Positions 2,439-57,880 of a stretch of 64,000 bases of DNA are shown piece by piece (position 1 is the stretch's first letter; the number at the start of each line of letters is the position of its first letter). Source of the DNA: Terriglobia bacterium. GTDB taxonomy: Bacteria > Acidobacteriota > Terriglobia > 20CM-2-55-15. Under the pieces are notes generated by a model that made no database searches, was not told the origin of the DNA, and saw only the letters and a list, made by a program, of their open reading frames with translations. The stretch covers positions 96,001 through 160,000 of the forward strand of contig CBDAOY010000004.1 in NCBI GenBank assembly GCA_965198225.1, in the 5' to 3' direction. The translations under genes and the position numbers were made by a program.

Positions 2439-2839
2439 ACTATCAGCCAGTCTGACTTCCGACAGGCCTTCGGGTCTTCCTCGCGTTGTTGGCTTGTCCA
2501 ACCCTACAAGCTCCGCTTGAACCTGACGGATCTCCCTTGTTCCCATGAAATCCTTGGTTGCATGCCGGCGGTACGAACCCCGGAAGCACCCCAGGGCACT
2601 TGCCATTGCGTGCCCTGCGATTCCGCCTTCCCCCTAGAGCGACAGGGTCGGCTACTTCAACCACGTTCGATTTCGGGGCTATCTTTCCGTTCACTGGTGT
2701 TCCGGCCTACTCCCTCCCTGTCTACGCTTCGCAGTGTCCGTCACCGACCACCACGCAAGACTCGGTACGTGGCTGCCGGCTAGGCTCTGCCACGGCCGCC
2801 ATCTCAGGCGACTGGATCTCATGCGCTTGCAAGGCGCAA

Positions 2840-9244: not shown

Positions 9245-11452
9245 GTGCGCCATGAAGGCGCGGTTGGAGGAATCCAGCCAAGCTGGCTGGTTTCTGACCG
9301 GCAGTTGAGATACTGCCCCACTCGGTCAGGGAGCCGAGTGGAAGGGGGTTGCAAAGCTTCGCCATATGCCGATGGCGGGGTGTCATGAGCAGCGCAGCCT
9401 GAACTGTACCAGACGCGATCCATTCATCGTGGGCTGGGCTACCGCAGGACCTATGGCGAGACAACGAAGCATGCGGGGGAAGCCCCTGTATTTAGCCGGA
9501 CAACCCTCGTAACGGAATGGATTGGGGGGATGTGGTGCGAACTGGCCGGACTTTATGTTTCCGGCTGGTGGCTGCGTCGGACGCTGCCGATGATGGGAGT
9601 TCCCCATTGCCATCATCCAGAGCCACCAGGGGTAGAGCATGCCACCTACAGGGTCCACAGGTTGGGAACCGGAACATGGGAACCCGCCATCTTCCGCCCG
9701 TAAACGGATACGGGCTAACCGCGGCGGTCGGCGAAGGAAGGCGGTGGGGGCGGAGTCTCCGTAGTAGTCCGAGACCGGGAAAGCCGGTTACATGGCGAAG
9801 GGAGACAGGGAGTCGATAAGCTTTCGAAGCCGGAGGAGCGATCTGTGGACACAGATCAACGGGCGGACCGAGCCTGGTTACTCGGCGTGCAGCGGAAGTT
9901 GTATCAATGGAGTCGGGAACACCCCGGCGAAACGTATCGTGAACTGTGGAATTGGGTGACCGATATCCGCAACTTGCGGTGCGCCTGGAATCGTGTGTCC
10001 CAGAATCGGGGCCACCGCACACCAGGTATCGACGGGCAGACGGTAGGAAAGATTCGCCGCAGGTTGGGCGAGGAAGCCTTCCTGGAGGGGCTACGCTGCG
10101 AACTGCGGGCGGGGGCATTCACACCCAGTCCGTGTCGCCGAAAGCTCATTCCCAAGGTAGGCAAACCGGGGCAGTTCCGACCTCTGGGGATTCCTACGGT
10201 CACCGACCGCGTGGTGCAATGCGCGGTCAAACAGCTTCTGGAGCCGATAGTCGAAGCGCGGTTCTGGCACGTCTCGTACGGTTTTCGACCGGGTCGAGGA
10301 TGTCACGGCGCTTTGGAGCATATTCGGATGGCAATGCGACCGCGACGACGGAACGACGCGGACGGCAAACGTCACGATCCCCCTTACCAATGGGTGATCG
10401 AAGGCGACATCAAGGGTTGCTTCGATCATATCGATCACCATCTGTTGATGAACCGGGTGCGTCGGCACTGCGGGGATCGCAAGGTGAATCGATTGCTCGT
10501 GCAGTTCCTGAAAGCCGGCGTTCTGGCGGAGGATCAGTTCCTCAGAACTGATGCCGGGACGCCGCAGGGAGGAATCATCTCGCCGCTGCTTGCGAACATC
10601 GCGCTCAGTATCATCGAGGAGCGGTACGAGCGGTGGGTGAACCACCAGACCAAGCGTCAGGCACGACGGACATCGAGCGGGATCAAGGCGGCGCTGGAGG
10701 CTCGGAGCACGGATCGCCGGTCAGGCCGGAACGTGTTCTTCCCGATCCGGTACGCTGATGATTTCGTCGTACTCGTCTGTGGGACTGAAGCTCAGGCTCA
10801 GGCTGAACGGACAGCATTGGAAGCAGTGCTGATGGACAGCATGGGATTGACTCTGTCACCTGAGAAGACTCGAATCACTGCCTTAACGCGAGGATTCGAG
10901 TTTCTCGGACACCGCGTGCGACTGCGTTGGGATCCTCGATACGGCTGGACGCCGCGCGTCGAGATTCCGAAACACAAAGTCGCCGATTTGCGCTATCGGG
11001 TCAAACAGTGGACCGGTCGCGCAACGACGCCTTGGCCTTTGCCGAAGTTATTTCGGAAGCTGAATCCCATCCTCCGTGGTTGGGCGCACTTCTATCGTTA
11101 CTGTACCGGGGCCAAGAAGATTCTCTTCAGTCTCGACTGGTATGTTCGAGATCGGCTCTGGCGTTGGCTACGGAAGAAGATGCCGAAGGCGCAAGTCTCA
11201 TCGTTGTTGCGGTTTCGGAAGCCGAGTTCGATCCGTCCTGCGTGGCGGGTCTGGCGAGACGGCCGATCCGAACAGTTTCAGATGGGATGGCTGACGGTTC
11301 AGCGCTACCGTCGCGGCTGGATGCGAGCCCCCGACTTTACATGGACTTCTGGAGAGCCGGATGCATAACGAAAGGTGCACGTCCGGTTCGGCGAGAGGGC
11401 ATGCGAAACCTCCGCTGGTTAACAGCGGCTCGGCGCGCATGCCCTACTCAAC
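9245..11452 (+). mobile_element. Group II intron (class A-like) inserted in the DITY codons of the IS3 transposase
   Basis: GTGCG start; domain V GAGCCGGATGCATAACGAAAGGTGCACGTCCGGTTC; end CTACTCAAC; splicing restores GAC ATC ACC TAC. Confidence 0.92.
9845..11368 (+). CDS. ltrA: Group II intron reverse transcriptase/maturase
   Basis: RPLGIPT, GDIKGCFD, GTPQGG, RYADDF; QRKLYQW N-terminus. Confidence 0.95.
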   Translation: MDTDQRADRAWLLGVQRKLYQWSREHPGETYRELWNWVTDIRNLRCAWNRVSQNRGHRTPGIDGQTVGKIRRRLGEEAFLEGLRCELRAGAFTPSPCRRKLIPKVGKPGQFRPLGIPTVTDRVVQCAVKQLLEPIVEARFWHVSYGFRPGRGCHGALEHIRMAMRPRRRNDADGKRHDPPYQWVIEGDIKGCFDHIDHHLLMNRVRRHCGDRKVNRLLVQFLKAGVLAEDQFLRTDAGTPQGGIISPLLANIALSIIEERYERWVNHQTKRQARRTSSGIKAALEARSTDRRSGRNVFFPIRYADDFVVLVCGTEAQAQAERTALEAVLMDSMGLTLSPEKTRITALTRGFEFLGHRVRLRWDPRYGWTPRVEIPKHKVADLRYRVKQWTGRATTPWPLPKLFRKLNPILRGWAHFYRYCTGAKKILFSLDWYVRDRLWRWLRKKMPKAQVSSLLRFRKPSSIRPAWRVWRDGRSEQFQMGWLTVQRYRRGWMRAPDFTWTSGEPDA

Positions 11453-14430: not shown

Positions 14431-14596
14431 CGGCGGCGAGCTCGACGTTCAGATCAGACCGGGAAATCTATTGTCTTTTCAGGACGAATATCGATTGATC
14501 GTTGGACAGTGCACCGGGAAACAAGGCGGGGGCAGATTGAAACGATGTCTGTGAATCGCACATCTTCACTTTTCAGTGATCGTTTACACTGCTGAC

Positions 14597-14752
14597 TGGC
14601 CGAGCGGCGACCGGCATGACACGGCGTGAAACCGGCGGGAGGCTCTCGGGCGGAACGTGGGAACCTGGCGCTCCGATGCCAAGGGAGACCTCCAGACGGC
14701 ACCCACGAGAAGCCGAGTACCAATGTGGAGCGCAGGGACGGCCGGGTCTGCC
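14597..14752 (+). mobile_element. Class D-like group II intron RNA relic (3' part of domain I and domain II)
   Basis: GCGGAACGTGGGAACCT...CGATG..AAGGGAGA shared with the introns at 52400 and 54282. Confidence 0.65.
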
Positions 14753-49543: not shown

Positions 49544-49799
49544 GGAACGGGTCCTTATGTTGTATTTCAACGTGCGCCGTGAGAAGGCGCCAATCCTCAG
49601 CGGGTGCGAATCCCGCCCGGCAACTGTCGCTCCAGTCGGTAGCAATCGGAGCGGATGGTGGAGGTAACAACATCGTCTGAAGCACTCCGATGACAAAGGG
49701 CCGCCTCGGGCGGCTCAGCGACCACACAGGCCACAACGCGAGTAAACGCCGAGCAGGCCTCGTATGTGGACGCCCCCCTGGTTGGCAAGCCTGACTTCG

Positions 49800-50130
49800 A
49801 ACCGAGGATCGGTGGCATTCAGGTCAGGTACGGTCGTATGTGCGGCCTCTTGATGCGGCACTTGCTGGCCGCGGGCCCGTATGGTGTTCGTGAGATCGGA
49901 TCCAAATCGAAACGACGGGCTCGATGGCCCTTCGAGGCCTACTGGGTTTTCCGATCCCGTCTTGTCGACCGTTTGCCCCTACCTTGTCCGACGTCCTGCT
50001 TGCACTCTCCAGTTGGAACCTCCGTGGCCCGTGTCCATCCGCCCAGGCGGCCAGCCGAACGATTTCCTCTCTCTTCTCCGCGTTTCTGATCTCGCCGACC
50101 CTTCTTCGCTCCACTGATCTGACTCGCAAC
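49800..50130 (-). ncRNA. Predicted bridge RNA/seekRNA of the IS1111 element (ends approximate)
   Basis: Stem-flanked internal loops carrying target-matching (49907-49914, 49931-49940) and donor-matching (49834-49842) segments. Confidence 0.8.
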
Positions 50131-50131
50131 C

Positions 50132-51178
50132 CTACGCTGCAGCCGCAACGGCCTTTGTCATTCCCCGTGCCCTGTAGCTCTCCTCCTTCACCGTCATGGC
50201 CCAGATGATGCGTGCCATCCTGTTGGCCAGAGCCACCGCAACCACCTTCCTCGGCTTTTCGTCCAGCATCCGGCCAAGCCAGGGATCGGTGACCTTCCTC
50301 CGCCGGATGGCACTCGAGATGACCGCCGTCGCCCCCAGGTACAGGAGCCTCCGGATGTCGCGCTGTCCCATCTTTGTGATCCCTCCCAGCCGTTGGCGGC
50401 CACCCGTCGAGGATTCACGCGGCGTGATCCCGACCCATGCCGCAAAGTCACGTCCATTACGGAAGCTCTCCATCGGTGGCGCGAACGCGTGCACCGCCAT
50501 TGCCGTGAGCTCTCCCACCCCTGGAATCGTCATCAGGCGCCCGAGCGCCTCATCTTCCCTCACGATGCGACGGATCTCCCGGTCCAGCTCATCGATCTCC
50601 GCATCCAGATCGTGGGTCCGCTCGATGAGGCGGCGTATGGCGGGAGGCACCAGCGCCGGGAAACACTCTTCACGCTCCGCGAACACCTCCTCCAGCCTCC
50701 CGACGTTGTGGGTCCCAAGCGGAGCGACGAGTCCAAACTCCGCGAGATGACCCCGCAGCGCGTTGATCGTCTGTGTCCGCTGGCGCACCAGCAGTGCCCG
50801 GGCCCGGAACACCACCGATCGTGCCTGCTCCTCCTCGGTCTTCACGGCCACGAACCGCATCGTCGGCCGCTGGGCCGCCTCGACGATCGCTCCCGCGTCG
50901 TTGGCGTCATTCTTCTGCCTCTTGACGTACGGCTTCACATACATCGGGGGAATCAGGCGGACCTCGTGACCGATCTCCTGGATCATCCGCCCCCAATGAT
51001 GGGCGCTGCCGCACACTTCCATCACGACCCGGCAGACAGGCTGCTTGGCGAGGAACTCGAGTAGCTTCGGGCGCGTGAGCTGCCTGCGCAGCACAGGCTC
51101 ACCGCTTGCCGTGGCTCCATGCAGTTGGAAGTACCTCTTTGAAATGTCGATGCCGATGATGGTGATCACCTTGCCCAT
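50132..51178 (-). CDS. IS110-family DEDD recombinase/transposase
   Basis: IGIDISK, VMEVCG, KNDANDA, TIPGVG, SSTGGR. Confidence 0.95.
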   Translation of the reverse strand: MGKVITIIGIDISKRYFQLHGATASGEPVLRRQLTRPKLLEFLAKQPVCRVVMEVCGSAHHWGRMIQEIGHEVRLIPPMYVKPYVKRQKNDANDAGAIVEAAQRPTMRFVAVKTEEEQARSVVFRARALLVRQRTQTINALRGHLAEFGLVAPLGTHNVGRLEEVFAEREECFPALVPPAIRRLIERTHDLDAEIDELDREIRRIVREDEALGRLMTIPGVGELTAMAVHAFAPPMESFRNGRDFAAWVGITPRESSTGGRQRLGGITKMGQRDIRRLLYLGATAVISSAIRRRKVTDPWLGRMLDEKPRKVVAVALANRMARIIWAMTVKEESYRARGMTKAVAAAA

Positions 51179-51577
51179 GTATCCCTCCCTCTATCGTGTT
51201 CTGAACGCACCCCTTGTGCGTTCTGCTGACCCGGCCCATTCTGCCGCCGGGGAGCGGGGGCGTCCACTCCATCGAAACGCACAATGCGGAAGCCGACCCG
51301 CCGTTGAAACGGGGAAGGCTGCCAGCGGTCGGGAAGCGAGCGACGCGAGCACCGACTGGTTCCGCCGGGGTATTGGGCGGTGGCATGTATGGAAGAGGGG
51401 ATTGGACGCAACACGGGAAGCCCTGCCGGTGGCGTGGCACGCGCCAACCGACAGCCCGCGAGGGTCAGGTTGGGCCGACAGGGTGGCGGAGAGGTCCGCA
51501 GTACCAAGAAAGCCGGGTAATGCCGCGTGGAGGGAAGGGACCTCAGTTCGAGAGCAGCGCATGACGGAGGAAGGGCC

Positions 51578-52399
51578 ATGAGGACTGGCGAGAGCCTAAC
51601 AGCCTCGGAGAGAGTTCAGCGACTCCAGACGGCGCTACATGTAGAAAGCGAAGGAAGCCCTGGGCTTCCGGTTCTACTCTCTGAGCGACAAGGTGTGGCG
51701 CGACGACGTGCTCGCAGTCGCCTGGCAGGCCGTGCGACGCAACGGCGGCGCGACACGGGGTGGACGGCGAGACGGTCGCGGACATCGATGCGTTCGAGGT
51801 GGACCGGTGGCTGGGAGCACTGGCGCGGGACCTGAAGGAAGGGACCTATCGGCCGCATGCGGTTCGGCAGGTTCTCATCCCGAAGAAGCAACGAGGGAAG
51901 TTCCGGCCGTTGGGCATTCCGTGTCTCCGGGATCGGGTGGTGCAGACGGCGGCGATGCTGGTGTTATCGCCGATCTTCGAAGCCGACCTGCAACCGGAGC
52001 AGTATGCGTACCGGCCGGGCCGAGACGCGCATGACGCAGTCAGGCGCGTGCATCGGCTGCTGACGACGGGCCACCGGGAGGTGGTGGACGCCGACCTGTC
52101 GGACTACTTCGGCCAGATTCCGCACGCGGACCTGATGAAGTCCATCGCCCGGCGTGTGAGCGACGGGCGGCTGTTGGGCTGGGTCAAGGCGTGGCTGGAG
52201 ATGGCGGTGGAAGAGGACGACGGGCGCGGCGGTCGCCGCCGCACGAACCGGGCGCGTCACGAGCGGAAGGGGACCCCGCAAGGGTCTCCGATCTCGCCGC
52301 TGTTCAGCAACATCTACATGCGGCGCTTCATTCTGGGCTGGAAGGTGCTGGGCTACGCCCGGCACTTCAAGGCGGAAATCGTCAACTACGCGGATGACT
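51578..52399 (+). pseudogene. RT of intron A, frameshifted near the 5' end and cut immediately after YADD
   Basis: VQRLQTALH, RPLGIP, DADLSDYF, GTPQG, NYADD|. Confidence 0.9.
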
Positions 52400-54281
52400 G
52401 TGCGCCACGACGGTGCGTAGAGGAGGCGGTCATGTAGACGCCGAATCGACACAGCCTTGCTGCACGAGAGATGAGGGCGGGCCCCTCGGACTCGGGGTGC
52501 AGGCCCAGGGTCCAAACCGCCGGATGCTGCTCGGACCAAACGGCCGGGGTGGTGAGCGAGACGGAAAAGGCGGGACAAACCCGTCAGGTGAGCGATGGGA
52601 AGACGAACGTGAGTGAACCGCTGATGACGTGTCGAAAGCGTAGGGACGCCATCGAAACCAAGCTCCAGTCGTTGGCCTGGGATGAAGCTCGGGAGGAGCC
52701 TGTTGACTGCCCGAGCGGTGGCCGGCATGAAGGCGGCGTGAGCCCATTGCAGGCTCTTGTGCGGAACGTGGGAACCTATCGCCTCGATGTTAAGGGAGAA
52801 ATCCAAGTGGAGGACCCACAAGGATGAGAATACCGATGCGAGGCGAAGGGGCGGATGGGCTTGTAGGAGCGAAGAAGCCTGGTAATGCGGGTGGAGCAAA
52901 GGGGCCCAACTCTCTGGCCAAGGACGCCGGTCAACCAGCGATGGGAGGAGCCGGTGTCTGAGGCAAAGCCTTATGTGATTCCAAAGCAACTTGTCTGGGA
53001 ATCGTACCAGCGGGTGAAGGCGAACCGCGGTGCAGCGGGCGTGGACGGTGAGTCGCTGGCGGCGTTGGAGAAGGACCTGAAGGGGAATCTCTACAAGGTC
53101 TGGAACCGGATGTCGTCGGGCTCGTACTTCCCGCCGCCCGTGCGGCTCGTTGAGATACCGAAGGATAACGGCGGCAAGCGCCCACTCGGTATTCCCACTG
53201 TTGCCGACAGAGTGGCGCAAACGGTCGTGAAGATGGTGTTCGAGCCCTTGGTGGAGCCGGTATTCCACGAGGACTCGTACGGCTATCGCCCCGGCCGGTC
53301 TGCGCTCGATGCGGTGGGAGTGGCGAGGAAGCGCTGCTGGGGCGCGGATTGGGTCATCGACCTGGACATCAAAGCCTTCTTTGATTCCATCCCGCATGAC
53401 CTCATTGAGCGCGCCGTGGCCCACCACACTGACCTTCCGTGGGTCCGTCTGTACGTTGCGCGGTGGCTTCGTGTCGCTGTGCAGCGGCCAGACGGGATCC
53501 TGGAGGAGCGGACGACGGGCACGCCGCAAGGCGGAGTCGTCAGTCCGCTGCTGGCCAACCTGTTGCTGCACTACGCGTTCGACCTCTGGATGCAAAGGAC
53601 CTTTCCGAGCGTCCAGTTCGAGCGGTATGCGGACGATGCCATCGTCCATTGCAGGAGCGAACGGCAGGCGCGAGCAGTATTGGAGGCCATTCGGGGTCGG
53701 TTCGAGCAGTGCGGTTTGGAGCTTCATCCTGTGAAGACCCGTATCGTTTACTGCAAGGACGACGACCGGCCTGGGGACTACGAACACGTCAAGTTCGACT
53801 TCCTCGGGTACACCTTCCAACCTCGGCGGGCGAAGAATCGCTGTTGGAAATTCTTCGTGAGCTTCCTACCGGCGATCAGCGCCAAGGCCGCCAAGAAGAT
53901 CCGGGCCACCATCCGCGAATGGCGGATGGCGTCCACCAGGAACAACCAGCGTCTGGAGGACTTGGCACGGCTCATCAACCCGTCGGTACGTGGCTGGATG
54001 AACTACTACGGACGGTTCTACCGGTCGAAGTGTGTTCAGGTCCTTCGCCATCTCAACGAGGCCCTCGCGGCATGGGCGCGATGGAAATACAAGCGGTTTC
54101 GGCGACGTGAGCGTGCGTCGATGCACTGGCTGGGGCGCATCGCGCGACGGGACAGGCAGCTGTTTGTCCTGTGGCAACTCGGCATCGTACCCGAGGCTGG
54201 AGAGTAGGAGCCGGATGAGGCGAGAGTTTCACGTCCGGTTCTGGGAGGGCCCGGGGGGGAAGTTCCCCCGGGCTACTCGAC
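52400..54281 (+). mobile_element. Group II intron B (class D-like), complete
   Basis: GTGCG start; domain V GAGCCGGATGAGGCGAGAGTTTCACGTCCGGTTC; end CTACTCGAC; EBS1 AGTCGT at 52667-52672. Confidence 0.92.
52954..54207 (+). CDS. ltrA: Group II intron RT/maturase (RmInt1-like)
   Basis: VKANRGAAGVDG, WNRMSSGSYFP, GTPQGG, ERYADD. Confidence 0.95.
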   Translation: MSEAKPYVIPKQLVWESYQRVKANRGAAGVDGESLAALEKDLKGNLYKVWNRMSSGSYFPPPVRLVEIPKDNGGKRPLGIPTVADRVAQTVVKMVFEPLVEPVFHEDSYGYRPGRSALDAVGVARKRCWGADWVIDLDIKAFFDSIPHDLIERAVAHHTDLPWVRLYVARWLRVAVQRPDGILEERTTGTPQGGVVSPLLANLLLHYAFDLWMQRTFPSVQFERYADDAIVHCRSERQARAVLEAIRGRFEQCGLELHPVKTRIVYCKDDDRPGDYEHVKFDFLGYTFQPRRAKNRCWKFFVSFLPAISAKAAKKIRATIREWRMASTRNNQRLEDLARLINPSVRGWMNYYGRFYRSKCVQVLRHLNEALAAWARWKYKRFRRRERASMHWLGRIARRDRQLFVLWQLGIVPEAGE

Positions 54282-54749
54282 GTGTGCCACGAGCACTGAC
54301 GGGCGCAAGTCGGGTCAGTGCGCAACTGTTTCACTGATGAGGGAGGGCCCCTCGGAGCCGGCGTGCAGGAGCCGGCTTCAAACCACCTTCGGTGGCTGTG
54401 GTTAAAAGCCATGGTCGTGAGCGCAGAAGGAAAAGGCCCGGGAAGAACCGGGTCAGGTGGCTGGCAAGAAGAGGACCGCAAGGGAATCACTGATGACGTG
54501 TCGAAAGCGTAGGGACGATGTCAGAACCGTGGGGAGTCATTACCGCGGGATCAGTTCAGACGAGAATCTGCTTACGGGCTGAGCGGCATCCGGCATAAAG
54601 GTGGCCTGAGCTTGTCGAGAGGCGGTGAAACGGAACGTGGGAACCTGAGATTCCGATGCTAACGGAGACGCCACAAGTGGAAGAACCACGAGGGCCAGAG
54701 TACGAACCATCCTGGCTCGCGGAGTCTCAGGGGCGGAATGGCCCGTAGT
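54282..54749 (+). mobile_element. Group II intron C (class D-like), 5' part up to domain III
   Basis: GTGTG start directly after intron B; shares CTGATGACGTGTCGAAAGCGTAGGGACG with B; EBS1 AGTCAT at 54535-54540. Confidence 0.85.
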
Positions 54750-55331
54750 GCGTGCCTGGCAGCACGCGTTTCCGGCGGGTTAAAGTCCCGCTCGGCCCGA
54801 GGCCACGGGTCGATATCCAACAAGTGGGGGTAATGCCTCACTGGCCGGAGTGTAGGCAGGTATGGCAAATGCCTAAACGGGCACGAAGGCGAAAGCCGGA
54901 CACGGACAAGGCAAAGCTGGAGCCACCTACGGAAACTTTGGAGGGCAGGGCGCCCACCGCGAGGTGGGGTCTGAAGGGCATGAGGAGAACCACCGGGTCG
55001 TAATCGACGGGAGCCATCCCGAGGATGAACCGGTCGGCCAAAGATGGGGAATGGTCGAGCCCGCACTATTGGGGCGAAGGCGCATTGGTTCCACCCCATC
55101 GCACCAAGGTGTGTGCGGGCGACACGGTGGGGAAGAGACGCGAGTGACCCAGGGAGGCCTGGTATCGTCCGAGCGGAAGGTAAGGTCGAGATGATGTGGC
55201 ACCCAAGGCAGACGAAAGGGCGGGCAACCGAGAAGACAAACATCGACCTAGAGCCCTGCGCGGTAGGTGCGGATATAAGCGAGAGCGAAATTCCGGCCGA
55301 CGCGGTGTCAGGAATCGGATCGGGGAATAGT
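54750..55331 (+). mobile_element. ORF-less intron, variant copy, 5' part up to its own domain III
   Basis: Paralog of ~55332-55910 with about ten differences; broken at GGAATAGT|. Confidence 0.85.
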
Positions 55332-56235
55332 GCGTGCCTGGCAGCACGCGTTTCCGGCGGGTTAAAGTCCCGCTCGGCCCGAGGCCACGGGTCGATATCC
55401 AACAAGTGGGGGTAATGCCTCACTGGCCGAAGTGTAGACAGGTAGTGCAGATGCCTAAACGGGCACGAAGGCGAAAGCCGGATACGGCCAAGGCAAAGCT
55501 GGAGCCAGCTACGGAAACTTTGGAGGGCAGGGCGCCCACCGCGAGGTGGGGTCTGAAGGGCATGAGGAGAACCACCGGGTCGTAATCGACGGGAGCCATC
55601 CCGAGGATGAACCGGTCGGCCAAAGATGGGGAATGGTCGAGCCCGCACTATTGGGGCGAAGGCGCATTGGTTCCACCCCATCGCACCAAGGTGTGTGCGG
55701 GCGACACGGTGGAGAAGAGACGCGAGTGACCCAGGGAGGCCTGGTATCGTCCGAGCGGAAGGTAAGGTCGAGATGATGTGGCACCCGCAGACGAAAGGGC
55801 GGGCAACCGAGAAGACAAACATCGACCTAGAGCCCTGCGCGGTAGGTGCGGATATAAGCGAGAGCGAAATTCCGGCCGACGCGGTGTCAGGAATCGGATC
55901 GGGGAATAGTACTCAGGAACGAGACGGCAAACATAAGGTCTCGGATCGTTGCTTCGAGCAGCGGCGCTGGCGGGTCCAAAAGGCCCGTTGGAGGGGGAAG
56001 TCCCCGTACTCAGTCGTGAATGTGCGAGCGATGGGAAACGCGGAGATATCGTGGAATTGGATAGTTCCCTTAGCGAAAGACCCAAACGCGGTACGAACGA
56101 AGCCGCCACCTGCCGCCACACAGCGAATTCCGAACGAGGAGCAACTGAGGAAAGCGGCTTGCGGGAAAACCGCACGAGCCGTTTGATTGAGCGGACGGTG
56201 GAAGGGCCGATCGGCCCGACCACTTTCGACTCTAC
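55332..56235 (+). mobile_element. ORF-less group II intron, complete (~0.9 kb)
   Basis: GCGTG start, domain V at 56151-56184, end GACTCTAC, no RT; EBS1 ACTATT at 55647-55652. Confidence 0.87.
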
Positions 56236-57771
56236 ACTCCGAGGTCGGGAGAGCCGATCACATGGGGAAGCGGCCAGCAGAAGTGGACTCGTTCTTGGGA
56301 AACATGAGCTCCATGCAACGGGAGGATACGGTCCTCTATGCAACGAGAGGAACAACCAGTCATGGAAACGAAACTGGAACGAATAGCGGCGAAAGCTCGG
56401 AGTGAGCCAAAGCTCCGGTTCACGTCACTGGCGCATCATGTCACCCGAGAGCGTGTGTGGAAGAACCTGTGTCAAGTGCCCCGCAACACGGCTCCCGGAT
56501 GTGATGGTCAGAGGGTACCGGAGGCGAAGGAGGAATTCGGAGTCTGGGTGGAGCCAATGCTCCAGTCTGTTCACCAGAAGGGATATCGCGCTCCGCCGAT
56601 TCGGCGGGTGTATATCCCCAAGCCCGGCAAGCAGGAGAAACGTCCCCTGGGCGTGCCCTGTGTTCAAGATCGGGCCCTTCAGCGCAGCGTGGCCGAGGTA
56701 TTGGTCGCCATCTACGAGCAGGACTTCTTGCCCTGTTCCTTTGGTGGCCGGCCTGGGCTGGGCGCCCACAATGCACTGGCAACCCTCCATGAGGTGATTT
56801 CCGGATGCAAGGTGAGTTGGGTGTTGGAGGCGGACTTGAAGAACTTTTTCGGGAGTTTAGACCATGGATGGCTACTCCGCTTTGTGGAGCATCGAGTCGG
56901 AGATCCGCGGATCATCAGTCTGATACGACGATGGTTAAAGGCGGGCGTTTTCGAAGACGGGGAATTGCATTCGAACGAAGAGGGAACCCCGCAAGGTGGG
57001 TCGATCAGCGTTCTGCTGAGCAATCTGTACCTGCATTATGTGCTTGACCTGTGGTTTGACCGGATGGTCCGGCCACGCCTGAAGGGTGAAGCGTATCTGG
57101 TGCGGTACATCGACGACTTTGTCGTGTGTTTCCAATATCGGGACGATGCGCTTCGTTTCCAGAACGTTCTGCGCAAGCGACTGGGAAAGTTTGGACTGGT
57201 TCCGGAGCCGACCAAGACGAAGCTCGTCGAATTCGGCCGCTATGCCCAGCGCGATGTCGTCCGGCGCGGGAGAAAACGTCCAGAGACGATCTATTTTCTG
57301 GGCATGACCCTGTACTGTACGCGTAATCGCAAAGGCAATTTTAGAGTGGGACTGCGAACAGAGAAGTCTCGACTTCGACGCAGTCTGGCTCATCTACGCG
57401 GCGTGATGAGGCGAATGCGTCACTTGCCGGTCCGGGAGCAAGTGCACAATCTGAACCGAGTCTTGCGCGGGCACTACGCCTACTATGGCATTGCCGGGAA
57501 CCTCCGGGCTCTGCAGCACGTCGCTCGGGCCGTGGAACGTTACTGGCGCCAAATGCTCAGCAGTCGTAGTCGTGCAGGCTTCGTCCGGTGGGAAGTATTC
57601 AACCGGATTCAGCTGCACTTTCCGTTACAGCGTCCCAAGTTGGCTCTCCGCTATCGGGAGTTCCAGTCTCTCGCTGTGCTGTAAATCCAATTCTGAAGAG
57701 CGCAGTGCGGGAAATCCGCACGCTGCGTTCTGTGGGAGCCGGAGGCGGGCAACTGCCTCCGGCCACCCGGT
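56236..57771 (+). mobile_element. Class E-like intron, 3' part (domain III to end)
   Basis: Resumes ACTCCGAGG; domain V GAGCGCAGTGCGGGAAATCCGCACGCTGCGTTC; end CACCCGGT. Confidence 0.85.
56338..57684 (+). CDS. ltrA: Group II intron RT/maturase (class E-like)
   Basis: RFTSLAHH, RPLGVP, GTPQGG, RYIDDF. Confidence 0.95.
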   Translation: MQREEQPVMETKLERIAAKARSEPKLRFTSLAHHVTRERVWKNLCQVPRNTAPGCDGQRVPEAKEEFGVWVEPMLQSVHQKGYRAPPIRRVYIPKPGKQEKRPLGVPCVQDRALQRSVAEVLVAIYEQDFLPCSFGGRPGLGAHNALATLHEVISGCKVSWVLEADLKNFFGSLDHGWLLRFVEHRVGDPRIISLIRRWLKAGVFEDGELHSNEEGTPQGGSISVLLSNLYLHYVLDLWFDRMVRPRLKGEAYLVRYIDDFVVCFQYRDDALRFQNVLRKRLGKFGLVPEPTKTKLVEFGRYAQRDVVRRGRKRPETIYFLGMTLYCTRNRKGNFRVGLRTEKSRLRRSLAHLRGVMRRMRHLPVREQVHNLNRVLRGHYAYYGIAGNLRALQHVARAVERYWRQMLSSRSRAGFVRWEVFNRIQLHFPLQRPKLALRYREFQSLAVL

Positions 57772-57880
57772 GCGACTGGAAACGAAGCCACGGCGAGGAG
57801 TGAGGCACCGGAATCGGCGAAAGCCACCGGCAACAGCTACCCCCTTTGCCTACCGCCACCGCGCCAGTCGTCGACTCTAC
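57772..57880 (+). mobile_element. Orphan domain VI and 3' end of an outer group II intron
   Basis: GCGACTGG...CCAGTCGT stem ending CGACTCTAC. Confidence 0.75.

Follow-up and report, generated by a model that had tools for sequence, protein, structure and literature searches.

M.a.I5, UA.I3, P.l.I2, and B.th.I3 are group II introns inserted at the RYADD codons of reverse transcriptase (RT) genes. As described by Tourasse and Kolsto (2008, PMC2504315), such YADD-homing introns have no endonuclease domain, and the conservation of their insertion sites is confined to two intron-binding sites, IBS1 and IBS2. Zimmerly and Semper (2015, PMC4424553) review the intron arrays of Methanosarcina acetivorans, where introns home repeatedly into other introns, deletions through homologous recombination counterbalance this growth, and no host gene is affected. 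Here, we analysed 64,000 nucleotides (nt) of DNA from a Terriglobia bacterium (assembly GCA_965198225.1, contig CBDAOY010000004.1, positions 96,001–160,000), hereafter called the window, in which two group II introns, B and C, stand one behind the other without a spacer at the Tyr-Ala-Asp-Asp (YADD) codons in the RT gene of a third one, intron A. Homing into RT open reading frames (ORFs), which an earlier note on this DNA had taken as established, is already published for the RYADD codons themselves (PMC2504315); what is less usual is a heterotypic stack with zero spacer.

The RT gene of intron A is cut one base past its YADD codons. As the earlier note had stated, the gene stops at TAC GCG GAT GAC T (52387–52399) and is followed by GTGCGCC from 52400 (window coordinates, plus strand unless stated otherwise), and the interrupted protein matches Pfam RVT_1 at profile positions 1–156 of 205 only. 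The source genome (G000, an assembly of nine contigs) has an intact 1994-nt copy of intron A at G000:C6:7952-5959 on the minus strand, from which B and C are absent. Because this copy runs on uninterrupted as ...GATGACT TCGCGGTTC... at the corresponding site, 52399/52400 is the true insertion point.

Intron B (52400–54281, 1882 nt) is complete and is covered by perfect public contigs. It has the hallmarks of a group II intron: a 5' GTGCG at 52400, a domain I matching Rfam group-II-D1D4-2 (RF01999) at 52473–52589 with 92 bits, an RT/maturase ORF of 440 amino acids in domain IV (52885–54207), and 3' domains V/VI (54206–54281; RF00029, 59 bits), the Rfam scan of the window giving seven matches in all. 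The protein covers the whole RVT_1 profile (1–205 of 205, E 2e-40) and matches GIIM (E 4e-14); no endonuclease family is found among its Pfam matches, which are RVT_1 and GIIM only, and the ORF stops 28 residues past GIIM. Intron B ends with ...CTACTCGAC at 54281, the last model position of RF00029, and intron C starts with GTGTGCC at 54282, with a spacer of zero as previously noted. C is present in the window as its 5' 466 nt only (54282–54747, domains I–III to the start of domain IV), with a match to RF01999 at 54339–54458 (107 bits). The earlier note had let this pair of introns run to 54749. That end had to be corrected, as C is interrupted at 54747/54748 by an intron-like element and its own 3' half is missing: its own domains V/VI are absent, and the 3' part now joined to C is that of another intron, E. 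In a relative of another genus in the same family (G020), a full copy of C exists, to whose 5' part the C of the window is 96.8% identical. The 5' part of B is about 69% identical to that of C, and the protein of B shares 55–63% amino acid identity with that of the full C copy in G020. By these values, B and C are related yet clearly distinct introns. They do not form a nested twintron, since the last base of B abuts the first base of C and neither interrupts the other; instead, they form a tandem, side-by-side pair, with two introns at one site, no exon between them, and guides aimed at the same exon. Nesting proper is found elsewhere in the locus, where B and C lie inside A, an element termed XY inside C, and E inside A. 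As a whole, the stack in the window is a fossil, B being the one member that still looks functional.

The guide loops, or exon-binding sites (EBS1 and EBS2), were placed by covariation in alignments, whereas minimum-free-energy folds computed for the 5' parts of both introns were set aside, long ribozyme folds being unreliable. C-like 5' parts are present in 15 of 60 related genomes, G000 included, and the guide alignment comprised nine C-like copies that were readable with their flanks. The EBS1 loop covaries with the last six exon bases (loop/exon: ACTATA/TATAGT, TCTTCT/AGAAGA, ACAGTA/TACTGT, GCCATG/CATGGC, and GTTTCC/GGAAAT), and the EBS2 loop, directly 3' of a conserved GTCGAAA, covaries with exon bases −14 to −9. 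EBS2 and EBS1 defined in this way are GCGTAG (52638–52643) and AGTCGT (52667–52672) in B, and GCGTAG (54507–54512) and AGTCAT (54535–54540) in C. They are complementary to one homing site common to both introns (52386–52399), which consists of IBS2 CTACGC (52386–52391), a 2-nt gap, and IBS1 ATGACT (52394–52399).

The same pairing was followed in a family sample of 80 loci from species-representative genomes, chosen solely by a 21-nt conserved block of domain I. All parts were obtained automatically for 46 of these loci, which together with B and C made 48. EBS1 matches its own exon at six of six positions in 32 of the 48, compared with 317 of 2216 cross-pairings; a few of the 48 (e.g. L078 and L092) have a mis-set 5' end, which depresses the own-exon score. 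Among the loci located off YADD codons, EBS1 pairs fully with its own exon in 21 of 29. The loops AGTCGT and AGTCAT, proposed in the earlier note as the EBS1 of B and C, are the true EBS1 loops on these scores. The site in A (CTACGC-GG-ATGACT) is matched six of six at both EBS2 and EBS1 by B and C alike, whereas the guides of C match the present left flank, the 3' end of B, at only four of six positions. For this reason, C was presumably aimed at the YADD codons and not at the 3' end of B. The earlier note had named a refuting condition, that other copies of C consistently follow intron 3' ends, and its check did not refute the reading. The sole other near-identical C, in G020, does so, the end being C's own and without a guide match. 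Six of the nine C-like copies, all more distant, follow unrelated exons. In five of these, EBS1 could be aligned and is complementary to the exon of the copy itself, while the remaining one (L007) is disrupted.

It is likely that C homed first to the YADD codons of intron A and that B later entered the same bond, giving the order A exon, B, C. In this scheme, C would have retrohomed into the YADD codons. Retrohoming without an endonuclease would need essentially just the 5' exon, namely IBS2 and IBS1, and this exon would survive the insertion unaltered, so that the occupied site would still show the full target. B might then have reverse-spliced into the same phosphodiester bond, between ATGACT and the first G of C. 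As B could use the same bond, the A exon, B, and C would follow one another without a spacer. Because a newcomer enters directly after IBS1 and B adjoins the exon, B would be the later arrival; B is intact, and C is interrupted and chimeric, which is also consistent with this order. The earlier note had likewise put C first, with B reusing the same 5' exon. We infer this order from the better match of C to the site in A than to its left flank, together with one Logan contig in run X3 that joins 52399 to 54282, omitting exactly the 1882 nt of B. An intact stack would be expected to splice serially from its 5' side, each excision giving back the 5' exon that the following intron needs. In the RNA run X13, parts of the stretch have low or no cover, and this run is uninformative on expression.

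Insertion at YADD codons is a habit of the family. In 26 of the 80 loci, the first base of the intron lies exactly one nt after TAY/TTC GCN GAY GAY, and these YADD- or FADD-inserted loci span many phyla, including one archaeal bin and Wolbachia. In the family alignment, the YADD-placed loci carry GCGTAG and ...AGTCGT... almost without exception. The guides are nearly invariant across the 26 exons (loci L022–L097) despite the variation in codons, in which Tyr is encoded by TAC in 8 and TAT in 17, plus one TTC; the first Asp by GAT in 12 and GAC in 14; and the second Asp by GAT in 9 and GAC in 17, while the third base of the Ala codon is G in 11, C in 8, A in 6, and T in 1. In the guides (EBS1 AGUCGU, EBS2 GCGUAG), a G faces the wobble base of the Tyr codon and that of each Asp codon, so that either C or U can pair there, and the unpaired 2-nt gap of the target takes in the wobble base of the Ala codon, which is four-fold degenerate. 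These two features together would explain how one guide fits every TAY GCN GAY GAY. Since only the 5' exon is read, an occupied YADD site would remain a landing pad. We tentatively suggest that, in the evolution of this lineage, the guide might have come to recognise a protein motif instead of one DNA sequence, that occupied YADD sites might stay landing pads, and that the resulting stacks might be removed serially from the 5' side. B and C themselves have the features of the YADD-homing lineage, as their IBS2 and IBS1 are RYADD codons, their insertion lies just after them, and the protein of B is without an endonuclease domain. We likened them to the M.a.I5/P.l.I2/B.th.I3 type by their target site, protein domains, Rfam D1D4-2 match, and common domain I block, a type whose full definition also includes 58–67% whole-length identity to the named introns and the 'B-like' RNA class.

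Stacks of this kind recur, and they are rare. On the minus strand of locus L021 in G020, a partial C copy ending in ...GACTCACC directly precedes the first base of the full C, and this partial copy is itself inserted one base after C's own YADD codons, right after the 3' end of another partial C. G020 therefore shows both a tandem of C with C and C inserted in C at one base past the YADD codons. Two further junctions came from metagenome contigs, where the junction pattern was loose and gave at least 120 matches; among the matches listed, four passed a crude domain V filter and two, L139 and L177, were real intron–intron junctions. In L177, an outer RT gene ending in ...RYADD plus T is followed by a 748-nt ORF-less member of the family and then by a second copy, which reaches the end of the contig and whose first 106 nt are identical to the first copy. 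In L139, a C-like intron follows directly on the 3' end of an intron, and the guides of the C-like intron (AATCGT and GCGAAT) spell TTC GCN GAC GAT T (F-A-D-D).

The source genome contains a second junction of B with C at G000:C5:889500/1. It belongs to a near-identical segment at G000:C5:888811-892508, which consists of the 3' 690 nt of B, the 5' part of C, XY, the 3' part of E, and the end of A, and which stops exactly at the 3' end of A. An independent insertion of B at this place was considered and rejected, since, in about 3.7 kb, the segment differs from the window only by two single-nucleotide polymorphisms, a deletion of 11 nt, one unit of X, and some small changes. B has no differences in its 690 nt between the two places, a count that is not significant. 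No clean retro-copy was seen in the flanks of this locus. At its upstream limit, the copy breaks off at position 1193 of B, where it adjoins an ORF, present with its N-terminal part, that resembles a Ser/Thr kinase (judged by eye, with no domain search).

Several points weigh against the order and the route proposed here. The joint of A with C in run X3 is a single contig with 27 letters on its shorter side and 90% likeness; joints of this type can arise from relatives or repeats, and, the kind of the run not being on record, the joint could represent an allele without B or an RNA from which B had been spliced. Error-free contigs from runs X1 and X3, which belong to two different studies, extend from B by 19–27 nt into A and by 29–30 nt into C. 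Across both junctions, they reach only 19–30 letters into the neighbour, below the threshold of 31 letters for bridging, and such overhangs are typical of unitigs at repeat borders. The right junction, from the 3' end of C into A, is absent from the window because A 1315–1885 is missing there, and is gone from this genome; the residence of C at the YADD codons is read from its guides and the X3 contig only. The 3' exon of B now begins with G, whereas the empty site begins with T, and any putative pairing at +1 (EBS3) would be lost. None of the 26 YADD-inserted family loci is a stack. A pattern in which a 5' end of the family comes after a domain V end, applied to 401 genomes of the phylum, was found in G000 only, at two places, and in none of the 400 others; G020 evidently lies outside this sample. 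The second junction of B with C in G000 is, by its sequence, a duplicate by descent and not an independent event, and L177 could reflect reads from intron circles if its source held RNA.

Other explanations can be weighed against the same evidence. A single event seems improbable to us, whether complementary DNA synthesis on C switched to a free RNA of B at its 3' end or a tandem of B and C moved as a unit. Group II RTs are able to switch templates end to end, which would favour the former. The latter finds a parallel in twintrons, for which a proposal has been made that nested introns move as composites (PMC2882425). However, the junction of A with B is exactly canonical and both introns have matching guides, so that two ordinary homing events suffice. 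After complete reverse splicing, moreover, the template runs on into the exon and offers no free end for switching, and the joint in X3 is a form without B. We regard it as very unlikely that B came first and that C, being aimed at intron 3' ends, entered later at the 3' splice junction of B. All three near-identical 5' ends of C (in the window, in its duplicate L016, and in G020 L002) do follow the last base of an intron. Yet the guides of C match the 3' end of B at too few positions compared with the site in A, and the preceding 3' end in G020 (..GACTCACC) differs in sequence and has no guide match either; reverse splicing would also put the newcomer directly after IBS1, which is the place of B, and the X3 contig joins A directly to C. 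An artefact of assembly from joined repeats is scarcely credible, for although the region is a nest of multi-copy repeats and no listed public contig spans the whole stretch, the junction of B with C is present twice in the nine-contig assembly, the error-free X1 and X3 contigs run from B into both neighbours, and like junctions exist in G020 and in two metagenome contigs.

The truncation of C involves XY, an ORF-less intron-like element of 906–909 nt that starts with GTGCG and whose 3' end forms hairpins resembling domains V and VI when folded (z −5.2). Its first copy in the window is X alone (54748–55329), the 5' 582 nt of XY, which starts with GTGCG, has many copies in G000, and occupies the same position of C in G020. 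It is followed by a complete XY (55330–56235; X 55330–55907, Y 55908–56235), with a weak Rfam D1D4-3 match (E 0.011), and by the 3' part of intron E (56236–57771), which is joined to the 5' part of C via XY. This part of E contains an RT ORF (56338–57684; Pfam RVT_1 and GIIM) and domains V/VI (57696–57771; RF00029), and the RT of E is only 30% identical to that of B. In G020, C consists of its 5' part, XY, and its own RT and domains V/VI. In G000, E lies between A 1885 and 1886 as E 5' part, XY, and E 3' part, and the E 5' part is found upstream of XY inside A at four loci of G000; it is of the Rfam D1D4-6 type (as at window 2570–2804) and begins with TTGCG. In the window, the 5' part of C is followed by X, XY, the 3' part of E, and A 1886–1994. 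The simplest account of the truncated C is that homologous recombination between XY in C and XY in E would have deleted the 3' half of C, A 1315–1885, and the 5' part of E.

XY shows further rearrangements of its own. It occurs as X followed by XY in the window and as X, X, Y, Y at G000:C6:840162-841980; these patterns fit an insertion of XY into itself at 580/581 followed by partial deletions. The two X copies of the window have 24 and 25 differences from the X of G020 (the compared slice being offset by 8 nt). The position that XY occupies in domain IV is the same in C as in E. E sits in the tail of A past domain V, an unusually long tail in which about 117 nt separate domain V from the 3' end of A, and E begins with TTGCG, not GTGYG; its positions in A are at G000:C5:760168, C6:839761, C5:812466, and C5:606913, and at 57771/57772 in the window. 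In the G020 locus (G020:C9, L021 4775-7024), the RT gene of C is split by an element that has inverted ends (GACTCCCCGTACGCAAAAGG...) and is about 2.25 kb long.

Intron A as a whole extends over 49572–57880, its limits being set against the intact copy. It starts with GTGCGCC at 49572 after the exon ...ATTTCAAC, a 5' exon that recurs at other copies of A, and ends with ...GACTCTAC at 57880. Compared with the intact copy, it is found in three pieces: A 1–191 (49572–49762; Rfam group-II-D1D4-4 at 49598–49741; 100% identical to the G000:C6 copy), A 189–1314 (51272–52399; 99%), which represents domain IV and holds the RT gene as far as the YADD codons plus one nt, and the last 109 nt, A 1886–1994 (57772–57880; 100%); A 1315–1885 is missing. 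Between the first two pieces, an IS110-family insertion sequence lies on the minus strand (49763–51271, boundaries ambiguous by 3 nt; Pfam DEDD_Tnp_IS110 and Transposase_20), with its transposase ORF at 50132–51178, and it is missing from the intact A. This same IS110-family element is present at the identical position of A in three copies (window 49763–51271, G000:C5:746567-748067, and C5:826162-827312), which suggests site-specific targeting of an intron sequence. The A copy of the window also has an apparent 1-nt insertion near 51750 relative to the intact copy (by eye), and its RT is spread over several ORFs, so that this copy is decayed beyond its insertions. Two antisense ORFs, at 51964–53820 and 54659–55822, match no Pfam family. 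Further intron material in the window comprises a nest of E and XY at 1–2900 on the minus strand with the Rfam D1D4-6 match at 2570–2804, a domain V/VI match at 11352–11452 (plus strand), and a B/C-like fragment at 14589–14741 (plus strand).

These observations suggest that the occupied homing site of an endonuclease-less, 5'-exon-guided group II intron is not immune to re-invasion, and that repeated hits at the exon–intron boundary can lead to side-by-side arrays in place of nested twintrons. The locus bears on the growth and collapse of intron nests and on whether tandem group II introns splice serially. It also bears on the annotation of such nests, in which automatic tools overlook outer and truncated members. 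YADD homing and the turnover of nests by recombination are already in print, and the locus does not represent a new principle. Our literature searches found no tandem group II introns at one site, although an earlier description in Dai and Zimmerly (2003) or Hafez and Hausner (2015) is possible.

Among known systems, M.a.I5, UA.I3, P.l.I2, and B.th.I3 share with B and C the RYADD codons of another RT gene as IBS2/IBS1, the absence of an endonuclease domain, and the formation of twintrons by insertion into related introns, as recounted in PMC2504315; the site given there for B.th.I3 ends in ...GATGACT, as in intron A. The M.a.I5-type introns are described in that account as nested, whereas B and C lie side by side at one bond. 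The Methanosarcina acetivorans arrays, compared here through the summary in a review (PMC4424553), combine site-specific homing with deletions by recombination, both of which are seen in the window, but the window is bacterial and has a zero-spacer tandem besides nesting. In Thermosynechococcus elongatus, an ORF-less intron homes to a conserved domain IV site of ORF-bearing introns, as XY does in C and E (Mohr et al. 2010, PMC2882425); that site lies between two start codons, and the account in PMC2882425, as far as it extends, describes no tandem arrangement. The side-by-side twintrons of fungal mitochondria likewise combine two related introns at a single site without an intervening exon, and for these twintrons a serial 'ratchet' splicing has been proposed (PMC6279837, PMC8393795). 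According to these accounts, however, the fungal pairs are group I introns with homing endonucleases, whereas B and C are group II introns that would find their common site by RNA pairing to the 5' exon.

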